Below, piece after piece: positions 11,366 through 48,065 of a stretch of DNA of 64,000 bases (position 1 is the stretch's first letter; every line of letters starts with the position of its first letter). The DNA lies in assembly GCA_049293675.1 (NCBI GenBank), contig JBAQBR010000002.1, positions 214,040 to 278,039 on the forward strand, in the 5' to 3' direction. The translations under genes were made by a program, and so were the position numbers. The DNA is from Patescibacteria group bacterium (GTDB lineage: Bacteria; Patescibacteriota; Gracilibacteria; BD1-5; UBA2023). Below the pieces are notes generated by a model that saw nothing but the letters and a program-made list of their open reading frames with translations, was not told where the DNA came from and made no database searches.

Positions 11366-13552
11366 TTATATAGCTAGAGTTACAACTTCAGTTACGACAG
11401 GAGTTTCTACTATCTTTTCGAGTCCAATTCGTCCCTTTTCTCGGTCGACTGCATATACCTTTACTTTTACTATCTCACCGACCTTGGCAACATCGTTCAC
11501 ATTGGCGATGCGCTGTGGTACTCCGAACTTGGAGATATGGATCATACCTTCCTTTCACTTTGCTATCTCGACGATGGCTCCAACTGTATCGAGTATCTTT
11601 ACAATCTTTCCTTCGTAGACGTCACCAACTTCGATATCCTTGAGTATGCCCTTGATGAACTCGAGTGCTGCCTTTCCTGCTTCTTGAGTCTTGGCTGTGA
11701 TAGTACACTGACCATCGTCTTCGAGATTGACCTCGACACCATATTCTTTTTCGATACCTTGTATTGTCTCACCTCCCTTACCGATGACTTCACGCATCTT
11801 CTCTTCTGGTACGAATACTGCAAGGAGGAACGGAGCATACTGAGAGAGTTCTGCACGAGGTGCCGCGAGACACTGCTGCATCTCACCCATGATGTATCCA
11901 CATGCGTCTACTGACTTACCAAAAACTTGCTTGATCACGTCCATAGAGAGTCCTGAAATCTTACAGTCCATCTGGAGGGCAGTGATACCCTTAGTGGTTC
12001 TTGCTACCTTGAAGTCCATATCTCCGAGGAAGTCCTCCTGAGCTTGGATATCTGCGAGTATCTCGTATTTTCCTGTGTCTTCATCGTATATCATCCCCAT
12101 CGCGACACCTGCAACCATCGCCTTGATAGGTACACCTGCATCCATGAGTGACATCGTAGATCCACACACTGATGCCATAGATGACGAACCGTTACACGTC
12201 GTTGTCTCAGAGACGACACGTATCATATATGGGAAGTCTGTCTCACTTGGGAGAACTGGTTCGAGAGCCTTCTCAGCGAGACGACCATGACCAACCTCAC
12301 GACGACCGACACCACGAAGTGGCTTGACTTCACCCACTGAAAACGGAGGGAAGTTGTAGTGGTGGATATAACGCTTGGTATCCTCCTCATACATATCATC
12401 GATAAGTTGGATATCTGATGGTCCTCCGAGTGTTGTCACGGAGAGTACCTGAGTCACTCCTCGTTCAAAAAGTGCCGAACCATGAGTCCGAGAGAGTATT
12501 GGTGCAGATGCACGGACAGGGCGTACCTCGTCACATGCACGACCATCGAGACGCTTGCGAGTTTCGAGAACCGTCTTGCGCATATGTGTCTTCACAACAT
12601 CCTTCACACTATCAGCTATATCTGCCATCTTCGGTGTGTTGGTTTCTTTGTTGTATTCGAGTCTTCCCGCAATGAGTTCTACAAGATCATGGAGTGCATC
12701 GTGGAATTCGAGTTTTCCGAGTTCATAGAGTCGGCGTATTTCATTTTCAGTGACAAGAGCATGAACCTTAGTGAGGACTTCTTGGTCTATATCGACCACA
12801 GTAAGTTTTGTCTCGGGAAGTGTATGGACAGCACTATATGCAACCATGAAGTCCTGTTGAGCTCGACAGAGATCCTTGATAATTGCATGAGCATATTCAA
12901 AGGCCTTCACCATAAGTTCGTTGGATACCTCAGAACCCTGTGACTCTACCATCGTGATAGCATCGAGCGTTCCTGCAACTGTGAGGTCGAGGTGTGCTGC
13001 GGCAATCTGTTCAAAAGTTGGATCGAATATAAAGTTCCCAGCTTCATCTGAGGCTATACGTACTGCTGCAACTGGTCACTCGAACTCTGTTACTCCTGCG
13101 AGCATGACCGAGAGTGATGCACCAGTAACTCCATACCAACCGAAGTCAGAGAGTCCAGATGATGACATGATAGTCGAGATAATCTGTGTATCTGTGCGAG
13201 TTCCCTTAGGGAACATAGGTCGTATTGGTCGGTCGATCATACGAGAATTCAGTATTGACGCCTCAGATGGACGGCCTTCACGCTTCATGAATCGATTTCC
13301 CCCGATCTTTCCGTTCGCATAGTACTTTTCTTGGAATTCGACCGTGAGAGGGAAGAAGTCTCCATCCTTCGGATTACCGATACCAGTGGTTGTGAGGAGG
13401 AAGTTCCCAGACTCATCGCGGATAACGATAGAACCAGTTGCGAAGAGCGCAAGACGCCCAGATTCGAAAGTGATATTTTTGTTGCCTATGGTATAGGTCT
13501 TGGTAACAACAGCGCGATCCAGAGCATTACGGTCCTTGAGTCAGACAATCAT
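11366..13552 (-). CDS. pnp: polyribonucleotide nucleotidyltransferase (PNPase)
   Basis: Track ORFs 11555..12952 and 13076..13288 plus extensions form one 728-codon frame. It contains RNase PH repeats, a KH domain and a C-terminal S1 domain that resumes after TGA 11555. Confidence 0.95.
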
Positions 13553-13774
13553 AAAAAAGAGAGGTTAGGAATGAGAACTTAGGAGTTAGAAGGAACTCCA
13601 AAACCTCGCAAATATATAACTTCTCGGAATTCCAAACCAATCTTTTGATAAAAAACTCGTTCGGAAGTGGCGAGAGGTATATTGCACGGTGAATTATAGT
13701 GAGAGCGCGAAAAAGTGCAAAAAGAAAAATCCACCAAATTCATGATTGAATACTTGATGGATTCATGTGTTATC

Positions 13775-13964: not shown

Positions 13965-14041
13965 GCGAGCATAGCTCAATTGGCTAGAGTACCGCCTTGC
14001 CATGGCGGCTGTTGTGGGTTCGAGTCCCATTGCTCGCTCCA
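13965..14041 (+). tRNA. tRNA-Gly (GCC)
   Basis: Acceptor GCGAGCA/TGCTCGC, anticodon stem CCGCC/GGCGG, loop TTGCCAT, discriminator U73, encoded CCA. Confidence 0.9.
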
Positions 14042-43451: not shown

Positions 43452-45443
43452 TTATAATACTTTCTTTCACTTCATCCACTCTTCGATATCTTGCCGTATC
43501 TCTGCTATGAGATCTGTATCTCTGAGGTCTGCGAAGTGGAAGTCTGGAACACCAGATTGGCGTACTCCGTAGACTTCACCAGGTCATCTGAGATCCAAGT
43601 CTATCTGCGCAAGCTCGAATCCATCATTGGTCTTCTCCATAGCCTTGAGACGATCACTTTTGTACTCCTTGGTCGTGAATAGGTAGCAGTATGACTGATG
43701 ATTGCCACGACCGACACGTCCACGGAACTGGTGGAGCTGAGAGAGTCCGAACCGCTCAGAAGCTTCGATACAGATAACGGTAGCATTGGGATTGTTGACT
43801 CATACCTCGACTACAGAGGTTGAGGAGAGTATATGTATCTTGTTCTCATAGAACTCTTGCATGATACGGTCTTTTTCTTTTCCTGTCATCTTGCCATGGA
43901 TGAGTCCGATAGTGAGGTGAGGAAATATACCTGAAAGTATCTCTTGCATATTGGTGGCTGAGGCGATATCAAGCGTCTCTGACTCCTCAACCAGTGGAGA
44001 TATCCAGTAGACCTGACGCCCACTCTTAACCTCTTCATCTATCCAATTGTATATTGCTCCGCGCTGTTCCTCCTTGACCACTCGTGTATGTATCGGGAGT
44101 CTTCCTGCTGGGTACTCATCAAGGACGGAGATATCTTGATCGCCATAGAGTGTGAGTGCGAGTGAGCGGGGAATCGGTGTTGCTGACATATTGAGGCGGT
44201 GTGGCTTGATAGATCAGGCACTACAATACTCTTCCAGTGCCTTGCGTTGCTCGACTCAGAATCGGTGTTGCTCATCCACCACAACAAAACCGAGCCCAGC
44301 GAATTGGACTGAATCCTGTATCAGTGCATGTGTCCCGAATATGATATCTGTCTCGCCGGACTTGAGTCTCGCTCGGGCATCTTCCTTCATCCGCGGTGTG
44401 ATAGAACCAACGAGGAGATCAGACTGGATTCACCACTGCATGAGCCAAGCCTCCTGTCCTGTGAAGTGCTGACGCGCAAGTATCTCGGTTGGTGCCATGA
44501 TGGCAACTTGGAGACGGATGTCTTTTTTCCTCCTTACCAATATTGCATGCACACTCGCGAGCATCGCGACAACAGTCTTACCAGTTCCGACGTCTCCCTG
44601 CAACATACGTGCCATCGCGTGTAGCCGTTCCATGTCTTTGAGTATCTGGAAGAGGACAATCTTTTGCTTATTCGTGAGAGGAAAAGGAAGCGACTCAATC
44701 AGTGACTTCATGAGTTCTGTATCGAGTGCTATCTGCGGTGCGAGTCCTGTTGATTCTGCTTCGAGGGCGTATTTTTTCTCTATACCTCGCTTCTGGAAGT
44801 GATAGAGTTCCTCGTATCCGAGTTCTGCTCGAGCTCTGTTCCAGTCTTCGAGGCTCGCTGGAAAGTGGATTGCCATGATATTCTCAACTCGACTGCGCAT
44901 TCACTTCTTCGTGCGTATGTCAGCAGGGATGCTGCTTTTTACCTCTGCGATGACATGACGGATGAGGGATATCTTCTCGCGTATCCATGTGCCAGGGATA
45001 TAGTTGAGATCAGAGTACACAGGTACGATCTCCCGACGTGTTGCCTTCGGATGCTCTATCTCTGCATTCGGAAAAGAGAGACGACCGTATTCGTATTTGG
45101 GTTGGCTGTATATGAGCACCGTATCACCTGATGCGAATTGTTGCAACAGGTATTTTCTATTGAACCAGACAGCTTCTGCGTATGAACCATCAGCATCGAC
45201 GAGGACTGCTTTGATAAGGAGTTTCTTGTTCCGAGTCATCTCACTTGTGAGGAGCTCTATCTTACATTGGACAACCTGCTTCTCTGTGATAGTGAGAGTC
45301 GAAAATCTCGTTGCAACATCACTCTTGTCTTCGACATCACGCGGAAAATACTCGATGAGCTGTTCGGCAGTCTCGATTCATGCTTCACGGAGTTTTTTTA
45401 TATAGACGTCCGTGGTATGGAGGAGTGACTTAGTGAGGAACAA
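43452..45443 (-). CDS. recG: ATP-dependent DNA helicase RecG
   Basis: Track ORFs 44901..45239, 44430..44900 and 43800..44189 share one frame. Wedge/OB N-terminus, GDVGTGKT, DEQHRFG and QLHQFRGRVGRG. Probable TTG start at 45443. Confidence 0.9.
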
Positions 45444-45508
45444 GTGTGAGATCTTAGGATTTAGAACTTAGGCATTAGGGTAACAAAAAATCCCAAAAAA
45501 ACAAGGCA

Positions 45509-46404: not shown

Positions 46405-46450
46405 AATTCTTTGCAATTTCTTCACACGTGTGTATACTTCGACTATATTC

Positions 46451-46600
46451 AGTTTTTCAGTGACTCGGGAGTGGCGTCCTGATGAGAAAAACTAAATACA
46501 ATGAAGTTGTCCTACAACTGTAGGAAACTTGGGTGGAACCGTTCTATGATAACTCTAGAACCCCAAGGAAACATTTTGTTTTCTCGGGGTTTTTATTTTC
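46451..46600 (+). promoter_or_regulatory. T-box riboswitch leader (glycine), transcription-attenuation type
   Basis: T-box sequence CTTGGGTGGAACCGTTC. Antiterminator: CTTGGG / bulge TGGAACC / GTTCTA-loop-TAGAAC / CCCAAG. It competes with a 14-bp terminator at 46559..46591 followed by a U-tract. A K-turn plus short Stem I sits at 46451..46493 with GGC in the loop. Confidence 0.7.
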
Positions 46601-46634
46601 CCCCTGAGGCATATTTTCTAACTTCTTTTTTATT

Positions 46635-48065
46635 ATGGCTGATATGCAAACACTCGTCACCTTTGCGAAGACAAAGGGTTTCGTCTATCCAGGATCAGAT
46701 ATCTATGGTGGACTTGCAAACTCATGGGACTATGGACCACTTGGTTCTGTGATGAAAGAAAATATCAAAAATCTCTGGATCAAAAACTTCGTCCAGAAGC
46801 GAAGAGACATGACTCTCCTCGATGCAGCTATCCTCATGAATCCTCAAGTTTGGGTTGCATCAGGACATGTTGGAGGATTCTCTGACCCACTTATTGATGA
46901 TAAAAAAACTGGAGAACGATTCCGCGCAGATAAGCTCCTCGAAGATCTCATCGAAAATATGGGTACAGATGCAGAATCACTGAAAGCAAAATATAATCTA
47001 GTAAACCTCGTTCCAGAATCTTGGTCTCTCGAAAGGCAAACTGCAGTAATGCGTGGTGAAAGTGTCAAGAATCCAAATACTGGAGAAGCAGGTGATTGGA
47101 CTGATGCAAAAAAATTCAACCTCATGTTCCGTACATTTCAGGGTGTAACAGAGGATTCAAGTGCTACTATCTACATGCGTCCTGAGACTGCACAGGGAAT
47201 ATTTGTGAACTTTGCCAATATTGCTCGAAGTTCTCGCAAGAAGGTTCCATTCGGTGTAGCTCAAGTTGGTAAAGCATTCCGCAATGAGATTACTCCAGGG
47301 AATTTTATCTTCCGAACTCGTGAATTCGAACAGATGGAGATAGAGTATTTTGTAGAGCCTGAGGCAGTTGCTCCAGGAAAACATCTTGAGATGCATGCTC
47401 AATGGAAAGCAGAGTGTAAGAGATTCCTTATCCAAGATATCGGCATCAAGGAAGAATCACTCCGTCTCCGTGACCACGAAAAAGAAGAACTCTCACATTA
47501 CTCAGCAGCGACGACAGATATCGAGTTCAAGTTTCCATTCGGTTGGGGAGAGCTCTGGGGAATTGCTGATCGTACGGATTTTGACCTCAAGGCTCACATG
47601 GCAGAGTCAAAACAAGATCTCTCGTACTTTGATCCATACACCAATACAAAATATATCCCATACGTTATCGAACCGTCTGTTGGACTTACTCGACTCTTTC
47701 TCGCAACTCTTGCGAATGCCTACGATGAGGTAATAACTGAGGAGGGAAGTCGTGTGGTCATGAGATTCACTCCTGCAGTTGCACCAATCAAGGTTGGTAT
47801 CTATCCACTCGTGAAGAAGTTCGCAGCTCAAGCAGAGGAACTCTTTGCACGACTATCTCCTGAGTTCATGTGTGACTACGATGAGTCAGGAACTATTGGT
47901 AAGCGCTATGCTCGTGCAGATGAGACAGGTATACCATACTCAATCTGTGTCGAGCCTGAGAACTATGAACAAGGACAGGTCACAGTACGCGATAGAGATA
48001 GCGGAGAACAAGAAGTGGTGAAGCTCGGTGATCTCGTAACTTGGCTCAAAAATAAAGGTTGCTAA
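46635..48065 (+). CDS. glyQS: glycine--tRNA ligase (alpha2 type)
   Basis: Uninterrupted 476-aa ORF with class II aaRS motifs and a GlyRS N-terminus (GFVYPGSDIYGGLANSWDYGPLG). No TGA. Confidence 0.95.
   Translation: MADMQTLVTFAKTKGFVYPGSDIYGGLANSWDYGPLGSVMKENIKNLWIKNFVQKRRDMTLLDAAILMNPQVWVASGHVGGFSDPLIDDKKTGERFRADKLLEDLIENMGTDAESLKAKYNLVNLVPESWSLERQTAVMRGESVKNPNTGEAGDWTDAKKFNLMFRTFQGVTEDSSATIYMRPETAQGIFVNFANIARSSRKKVPFGVAQVGKAFRNEITPGNFIFRTREFEQMEIEYFVEPEAVAPGKHLEMHAQWKAECKRFLIQDIGIKEESLRLRDHEKEELSHYSAATTDIEFKFPFGWGELWGIADRTDFDLKAHMAESKQDLSYFDPYTNTKYIPYVIEPSVGLTRLFLATLANAYDEVITEEGSRVVMRFTPAVAPIKVGIYPLVKKFAAQAEELFARLSPEFMCDYDESGTIGKRYARADETGIPYSICVEPENYEQGQVTVRDRDSGEQEVVKLGDLVTWLKNKGC

Follow-up and report, generated by a model that had tools for sequence, protein, structure and literature searches.

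How much of a T-box can be lost before it ceases to read its tRNA? The question is raised by the leader of the glycyl-tRNA synthetase (GlyRS) gene in a 64,000-nucleotide stretch of DNA from a Patescibacteria group bacterium of the Gracilibacteria (assembly GCA_049293675.1, contig JBAQBR010000002.1, positions 214,040 to 278,039 of the forward strand). This stretch is called the window below, and all coordinates refer to it. T-boxes are the textbook example of an RNA that reads another RNA. Structural accounts describe three contacts with the tRNA, at its anticodon, its elbow and its 3' end, and a Stem II brace that is essential where the elbow contact is absent. The leader in the window and about 57 covarying relatives have kept the switch and lack both of these supports, and they are still ended by a terminator. 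The comparison of these leaders makes it highly probable that the one in the window is a tRNA-Gly-sensing T-box transcription attenuator of the GlyRS gene in a minimal form. A preliminary description of the locus had read it as a glycine T-box with a Stem I ending in a kink-turn (K-turn), a short helix and a GGC loop, and the relatives support that reading. The parts of the leader (lengths in nucleotides, nt, or base pairs, bp) and the gene that follows it are these:

46451-46493 (+), the ultrashort Stem I as a whole, 43 nt, consisting of P1, the K-turn, P2 and the Specifier loop
46451-46458 with 46486-46493 (+), helix P1, AGUUUUUC with GAAAAACU, 8 bp, read from the sequence
46459-46463 with 46484-46485 (+), K-turn read from the sequence, with the bulge AGU at 46459-46461, and G46462/A46463 opposite G46484/A46485 as tandem G.A/A.G pairs of the sheared type
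46465-46470 with 46477-46482 (+), helix P2, U46465-A46482 to A46470-U46477, six pairs, one of which is G.U
46471-46476 (+), Specifier loop GUGGCG, with GGC at 46473-46475, U46472 before it and the purine G46476 after it
46494-46509 (+), single-stranded linker of 16 nt, ending in the purine string GAAGUUG
46510-46525 (+), Stem III, UCCUAC/GUAGGA with the loop AACU, followed by AA at 46526-46527, taken from folds
46528-46533 with 46562-46567 (+), antiterminator helix A1, CUUGGG with CCCAAG, read from the sequence
46534-46540 (+), T-box bulge UGGAACC, 7 nt, between A1 and A2
46541-46546 with 46556-46561 (+), antiterminator helix A2, GUUCUA with UAGAAC, closing pair G46541-C46561
46557-46599 (+), intrinsic terminator, a hairpin at 46557-46593 followed by the U tract UUUUUAUUUU, with 46557-46567 in common with the antiterminator
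46635-48065 (+), gene of the glycyl-tRNA synthetase of the alpha2 type, 476 amino acids, stop codon TAA, no in-frame TGA

The minimum-energy fold of Stem I is identical to the proposed structure (-12.2 kcal/mol). Taken as a single sequence this fold is not significant (z-score -1.43, with 15 of 200 shuffles folding equally well), and the significance of the leader therefore comes from the comparison with its relatives. At the level of the sequence the putative K-turn has the AGU bulge, the G.A/A.G pairs and a C-G closing pair, and C46464 lies opposite U46483 in the same region. The codon in the loop is GGC, followed by G, and stands upstream of GlyRS. The tRNA elbow has no distal platform of interdigitated T-loops to rest on, as the 43-nt Stem I stops at the Specifier loop. 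There is also no S-turn internal loop around the Specifier: no AGAGA/AGUA strand is present, and the codon sits in a hairpin loop of 6 nt. Neither a Stem II nor a Stem II S-turn nor a Stem IIA/B pseudoknot was found, and no sequence between Stem I and Stem III could form them. The two stems are joined by the short linker, as in the glycine class of T-boxes.

The T-box core GGGUGGAACCG at 46531-46541 agrees with the consensus of the Rfam T-box family RF00230; this exact 11-mer by itself is not significant within 64 kb. The antiterminator is the minimum-energy fold of 46504-46568 (-20.5 kcal/mol, z-score -2.83). The terminator fold of lowest energy comprises 8+8 pairs at 46557-46593 around a 3-nt loop (-18.8 kcal/mol, z-score -5.56) and lies 44 nt ahead of the GlyRS start codon. 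The preliminary description had given the 8-bp helix, the AGU K-turn with tandem GA/GA, the 6-bp stem with the GUGGCG loop, and the two antiterminator pairings that enclose the 7-nt bulge, all of which are present as described. It had also placed a terminator of 14 bp at 46559-46591; the hairpin and its U tract are there, and the clean 14 bp are not, since 13 pairs and one A.C mismatch are formed. The flanks of Stem III in the window, GAAGUUG before it and AA after it, are 1 nt longer than the 5'-RRRxG/3'-AA motif, and the relatives have AAGUG or AAGAG and then AA. An open reading frame (ORF) that overlaps the leader at 46501-46752 was taken as a mechanical ORF and rejected as a leader peptide.

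Relatives were collected in several ways. The core GGGUGGAACCG was found upstream of GlyRS at six loci reached by GlyRS homology (L001, 80% GlyRS identity; L003, 66%; L002, 64%; L004, 58%; L012, 56%; L086, 52%). A metagenome scan with GlyRS gave few close relatives. The scan of genome contigs with a DNA pattern, which required G-C at the base of A2 by design, was far more productive and yielded at least 120 loci at one genome per species; GlyRS is located no more than 1.8 kb downstream at 53 loci among the matches listed. The family sample used below comprises 57 related GlyRS leaders, mostly of Gracilibacteria, from about 57 species-level genomes. The genomes that bear the leader are mostly metagenome-assembled genomes (MAGs) of Gracilibacteria, some labelled Peribacteria; HOT-871 and 28_42_T64 among them are complete genomes. 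Closest to the window among the matches listed is Ca. Gracilibacteria HHAS10, with 86% GlyRS identity. A covariance model built from 18 related leaders, from which the window and its two closest relatives (L274, L275) had been excluded (model R2), recovers the element at 46447-46601 with 106.9 bits (E 1.3e-21), the next-best match in the 64 kb having 15.4 bits. Of the 57 sources searched with a further model, R1, the window included, 56 have the element in front of GlyRS.

The helices of the leader covary, as a comparison of orthologous leaders proposed in the preliminary description was to establish. When 56 leaders were aligned by fitting to the model, 86.6% of the cells were paired, against 66.6% in shuffles, and the covariation score was 0.456 against 0.165. 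None of 500 shuffles reached 0.456, and controls with slid partners gave at most 0.153. In this alignment every pair of P1, P2 and Stem III has changed on both sides. The MAFFT alignment, which was fitted to no structure, gives P2 85% paired with 6 of 6 pairs covarying and Stem III 93% paired with 4 of 4 covarying, so that the two alignments agree on 85-86% for P2 and 93-94% for Stem III.

The same sample permits the loop to be examined. The Specifier census took hairpins with at least 4 contiguous pairs and a loop of 5-10 nt; it replaced folds of 125 nt upstream, which were noisy from promoter DNA. The pattern U-GG-N-R (N, any nucleotide; R, purine) occurs in a hairpin loop of 49 of the 57 leaders; for the other 15 dinucleotides the highest figure is 25 of 57. 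Rough automatic counts of the codon give GGA 22, GGC 21, GGU 5 and GGG 1, at least two of them (L193, L246) being wrong when inspected by hand. In the alignment labelled A1 the GGC is invariant and the preceding U nearly so. As the codon varies only among the four glycine codons upstream of GlyRS, there is strong evidence that this loop acts as the Specifier. The U before the codon is not conserved in three canonical leaders of Bacilli/Bacillota (L013, L014, L040) and is therefore peculiar to the terminal-loop form. Anticodon loops follow the pattern U-NNN-R, which is also complementary to U33-N34-C35-C36-A37 of tRNA-Gly; either of these may explain the conserved U.

The K-turn parser accepted a leader only if a first helix of 3 bp or more was followed by a 3-nt bulge, GA, a second helix of 3 bp or more, a loop and then the GA that matches. 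This strict parse fits 21 of the 57 leaders, whose P1 and P2 are highly varied in sequence, and the bulge together with its GA (GAUGA, AGUGA, UAUGA) agrees with the RF00230 consensus for the base of Stem I. Other subfamilies (L165, L168, L253) have asymmetric internal loops in place of the K-turn. Of the two features that the preliminary description expected to find conserved in orthologous leaders, the loop has been kept and the K-turn only in the minority just given.

The distance available upstream also speaks against a larger Stem I; the following promoter was predicted in front of it:

46411-46438 (+), predicted sigma-70-type promoter, TTGCAA, 16 nt, TATACT, from a consensus scan, 9 of 12 matches

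It lies 13 nt upstream of P1 and would imply a transcription start near 46445; a second candidate promoter at 46421-46449 would start transcription within P1. The arrangement TTTGCA/TTGCAA..TATACT occurs at an equal distance in the relatives. In the 38 leaders with a good promoter match the end of the -10 hexamer is separated from helix A1 by a median of 86 nt (range 74-96), with which the promoter in the window is consistent, and the predicted start is only about 80 nt from A1 across the family. Judged by these predicted starts, neither a long Stem I nor a Stem II would fit, and the earlier statement that no distal platform or long Stem I is visible is upheld. The codon is 55 nt from A1 in the window, the family median being 54 nt, and about 49 nt from A1 in the canonical glyQS leader of Bacilli L013 by a hand count. 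This similarity implies that the path from the Specifier through the K-turn, the linker and Stem III to the antiterminator has been preserved. The missing parts are everything distal to the Specifier, and Stem II, which other glycine T-boxes lack as well. In a review the lack of Stem II in glycine T-boxes is ascribed, as probable, to the strength of the GGC:GCC pairing (PMC7583486).

The gene downstream of the leader had been expected to encode the synthetase, which is borne out: the protein contains the Pfam class II core and the HGTP anticodon-binding domain, and it matches entries of the Protein Data Bank (PDB) named Glycine--tRNA ligase (8t5n, E 5e-127; 1ati, E 2e-101). The label glyQS used for it does not hold, as the enzyme is a single-chain alpha2 GlyRS. 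The presumed ligand is encoded in the window:

13965-14041 (+), gene of tRNA-Gly(GCC), presumed ligand, Rfam tRNA 63.3 bits, ARAGORN

This tRNA has the anticodon loop UUGCCAU and the discriminator U73, and its CCA is encoded. The UGGA of the bulge is complementary to its UCCA end, as had been pointed out before, so that bulge and discriminator match. The Specifier of the leader matches only a tRNA-Gly that reads GGN.

The reassignment of UGA to glycine that had been suggested for this genome is confirmed in the window. RecG (43452-45467, minus strand) and PNPase (11366-13564, minus strand) contain 8 and 3 in-frame TGA codons, respectively, and 5 of 6 aligned sites fall on conserved glycines of PDB homologues. 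Under the standard code, ORFs of at least 150 amino acids total only 29.5 kb of the 64-kb window with all six frames summed, and the long frames of the two-stop code listed in the window all stop at TAA or TAG. It is reasonable to suppose that GlyRS must also charge tRNA-Gly(UCA). It would be tempting to see the unusual leader as a consequence of the changed code; this story has to be corrected. The same architecture is found in Magasanikbacteria and other Patescibacteria (L180, L198, L246, L267) which have no in-frame TGA in GlyRS and good frames in the standard code. The variant is thus not specific to genomes of code 25, and because it is present in standard-code Patescibacteria, the recoding is its context and not its cause. 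The idea that GlyRS avoids UGA, which would fit the absence of such codons from the gene in the window, was likewise rejected, as orthologues carry up to 25 in-frame TGA.

By combining these data it is possible to describe how the leader would operate. Transcription would begin near the predicted start, and the first 43 nt would fold as the short Stem I. The K-turn would bend the RNA, and the 6-nt terminal loop would display U-GGC-G. The anticodon GCC of tRNA-Gly would then pair with GGC in a loop-loop contact of two anticodon-like hairpins, the flanking U and purine of the Specifier being complementary to A37 and U33. If the tRNA is uncharged, its U73-C-C-A would pair with the UGGA of the bulge and shift the balance from the terminator to the antiterminator (-16.7 vs -11.5 kcal/mol in the pairing first proposed). 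If it is charged, the more stable terminator would form and transcription would end at the U tract. No platform would receive the elbow of the tRNA, and no Stem II or pseudoknot would brace the codon-anticodon helix. The sequences themselves show the elements of the leader, their conservation and covariation, a loop codon that varies within glycine, and the association with GlyRS; binding of the tRNA, the sensing of its charging and readthrough are deduced from them.

The main uncertainty is whether the RNA is sufficient alone or depends on a helper. A protein or another factor might replace the elbow and Stem II contacts, and either an L7Ae-family protein that binds K-turns or GlyRS itself, bound to the Stem I hairpin, might be suited to this role. 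The subfamily of the window does retain a K-turn that matches the consensus. However, more than half of the family has no recognisable K-turn and yet keeps the loop and the remaining leader, and the loop is complementary to the anticodon of tRNA-Gly instead of mimicking it, so that it is no recognition mimic for GlyRS. A helper-dependent T-box is rather unlikely on this evidence. It might also be imagined that the 3' discriminator alone senses any uncharged tRNA ending in UCCA, the 5' hairpin being an element of folding or stability that makes no contact with an anticodon. The T-box core is the most conserved part of the leader, and the discriminator has been described as necessary and sufficient for sensing aminoacylation (PMC7583486). 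Such a division of labor would leave unexplained why U-GGN-R is kept while the surrounding stems vary freely, why the codon is limited to glycine upstream of GlyRS, and why sister leaders of threonyl-tRNA synthetase (ThrRS) genes carry ACC at the same place; this explanation appears very improbable. Hardly any weight can be given to the idea that a T-box has decayed here to a remnant, or to an attenuator that works constitutively and has ceased to respond to tRNA. The failure of RF00230 to match, the G-C pair that closes A2 and the existence of leaderless close relatives of GlyRS could be read in its favor, but in relics the compensatory changes seen in five helices, over about 57 genomes at species level, would not be kept, and the 7-nt bulge is invariant and accompanied by a competing terminator in every member.

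The reading of the leader as a minimal T-box that responds to tRNA-Gly has to be weighed against a number of points that speak against it. Transcriptional T-boxes generally need a long Stem I with an elbow-binding platform, and with the truncated Stem I elements of ileS the binding of tRNA is barely detectable without Stem II (both from the review PMC7583486); a leader that lacks both platform and Stem II may need a helper. The K-turn is apparently conserved in the subfamily or clade of the window and not in the whole family. About 22 leaders have a GGA Specifier, the pairing of which is weaker than that of GGC. All of the relatives are genome or metagenome sequences, and four GlyRS relatives (L081-L084) show no T-box core in the upstream flank, which covers about 0.6-1.2 kb depending on the locus. 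The G.U at the base of A2 has been described as the primary sensor of the 3'-aminoacyl group (PMC7583486), and the closing pair of A2 here is G-C instead of this conserved steric sensor. Finally, the Infernal search with RF00230 recommended in the preliminary description gives no match to the window, either at the gathering score or even at E<=10.

Two of these points can be put in proportion. G-C closes A2 in 6 of the 7 leaders to which GlyRS homology led, L002 having G.U. The G-C pair departs from the consensus and is not diagnostic, since it is common to the long-Stem-I leaders of Clostridia; as a marker of the class it was rejected for this reason and because the short-Stem-I leader L068 has G.U. 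With regard to RF00230, the gathering score in the Rfam copy used is 93 bits, and the canonical control, the glyQS leader L013 of Bacilli, scores 58.1 bits. Glycine T-boxes in general are below the annotation threshold, and only searches by E-value are therefore meaningful. None of the 18 relative loci searched at the gathering score was matched, and this score also excludes L013. By E-value, scores of 52.1 (L047), 42.5 (L175), 36.9 (L212) and 28 bits (L165) were obtained, and the weak recognition of the family members L175 and L165 supports homology to T-boxes; the window, L274, L182, L262, L189 and L195 gave no match at E<=10. The database TBDB was built from RF00230 matches and from a second model whose use was restricted to Actinobacteria and to RF00230 matches with a truncated Stem I. 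No paper that joins the T-box with Gracilibacteria, Patescibacteria, the candidate phyla radiation or Saccharibacteria was found in a full-text collection that is incomplete, so that an earlier description is possible.

Some observations concern the distribution of the glycine leader. The GlyRS genes of L081 and L082 (1-1215 in both; 69% and 63% identity), which are leaderless, directly follow the gene of a small predicted membrane protein, and T-box control of GlyRS appears from them to have been gained or lost within the clade. The closest relatives of the GlyRS in the window outside Gracilibacteria/Patescibacteria are those of Clostridia (L005-L011, L025; about 53-55% identity), which are nearer to it than most sequences of Peregrinibacteria and other candidate phyla. 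This likeness hints at a transfer of the GlyRS gene, with which the leader may have travelled. Beyond Gracilibacteria, a short Stem I with GGC in a terminal loop is also found in glycine leaders, in L047 (98-226, labelled Christensenella), L057 (1102-1256, Eubacteriales) and L068 (1232-1386, Parcubacteria), the loops being GUGGCGA, AUUGGCAAC and UUUGGCU. L047 and L057 have one or two additional hairpins before Stem III, and L068 keeps the canonical G.U at the base of A2.

A second group of short-Stem-I T-boxes in other Patescibacteria has, upstream of the T-box core, a 7-nt loop CUACCAA or a near variant of it (L161, L167, L173, L187, L189, L190, L195, L196, L212, L219, L220, L223, L228, L232, L234, L235 and L237). 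In shape the loop resembles an anticodon loop; its ACC codes for threonine, and most of these loci have the ThrRS gene as the first one downstream. These loci suggest that terminator-bearing T-boxes with an ultrashort Stem I are common in candidate-phyla bacteria. In most leaders of this type Stem I is separated from Stem III by additional helices that bear a GACUAAG motif. In L161, L195, L219, L223 and L232 (Doudnabacteria and related MAGs) the ACC loop is only 33-35 nt before A1 and the terminators are unusually long; there seems to be no room for a Stem II or a Stem III, although Stem III has been termed indispensable in a review. The first gene after the leader is not always the synthetase itself: it encodes a D-Tyr-tRNA deacylase (PF02580) in L228 and a NUDIX protein (PF00293) in L167, and the corresponding genes of L261 and L220, respectively, are assigned to these two by their resemblance in sequence.

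The evidence is evenly balanced on a wider proposal, that a natural class of minimal terminating T-boxes is in use in Gracilibacteria, in other Patescibacteria and perhaps in a few MAGs with the label Firmicutes. Its members would make two contacts with the tRNA, by a hairpin which resembles an anticodon loop and pairs with the anticodon, and by UGGN-NCCA, and would have no platform, no Stem II and no need of a helper. The class would be missed at the Rfam gathering score and would lie outside the design of TBDB, and the ThrRS leaders with CUACCAA appear to belong to it. If this proposal is true, the class sets a lower limit to the requirements of a T-box and is at odds with the rule by which a transcriptional T-box requires a long Stem I. 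If the leaders work as they appear to, they are the smallest natural T-boxes, about 150 nt long, and would provide structural biologists and RNA engineers with a compact module for sensing tRNA. Bacteria of the candidate phyla with reduced genomes would then control aminoacyl-tRNA synthetases by riboswitches that are unreported by the Rfam gathering score and the TBDB pipeline.

A precedent of a general kind exists for a bare hairpin loop that grips an anticodon. Two tRNAs with complementary anticodons form loop-loop complexes in which the three central bases are paired and flanked by U and a purine. The likeness is an analogy for this grip only.

Among known T-boxes the closest comparison is with the canonical glyQS/glyQ elements of Bacilli (B. 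subtilis, G. kaustophilus and O. iheyensis; PDB 4LCK, 4MGN, 6PMO and 6POM according to PMC7583486). The leader in the window resembles them in the K-turn with its GAUGA-type GA motif at the base of Stem I, the glycine Specifier followed by a purine, the absence of Stem II, the purines on either side of Stem III (in the window 1 nt more than the motif), the comparable spacing of codon and A1, the UGGAACC bulge that would pair with U73-CCA, and the competing intrinsic terminator. It differs from them in that the Specifier is in a terminal loop, of 6-9 nt, and not in an internal loop with an S-turn; that all of the distal Stem I is gone, and with it the platform of interdigitated T-loops which stacks against the elbow of the tRNA; that A2 closes with G-C instead of G.U; and that the whole leader is only about 150 nt long. 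The glyQS T-boxes of streptococci (PMC11404447) have no recognisable K-turn, as in the subfamilies L165, L168 and L253, and, unlike the leaders described here, keep a long Stem I with the distal platform.

In its 5' half the leader is similar to the ultrashort (US) T-boxes of actinobacterial ileS genes (Mycobacterium, Nocardia; Sherwood et al. 2015, as summarised in PMC7583486), in which, likewise, the Specifier occupies the terminal loop of a short helix and no platform is present. According to that summary, both the S-turn of Stem II and the Stem IIA/B pseudoknot of the US T-boxes are essential for tRNA binding, whereas the leader in the window has no Stem II. In a 2023 account (bioRxiv 10.1101/2023.02.28.530422) all ultrashort T-boxes are said to regulate ileS and to act on translation. 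The US elements are summarised as translational switches which sequester the Shine-Dalgarno sequence and belong to ileS only, whereas the leader in the window carries a terminator with a U tract and stands in front of GlyRS.

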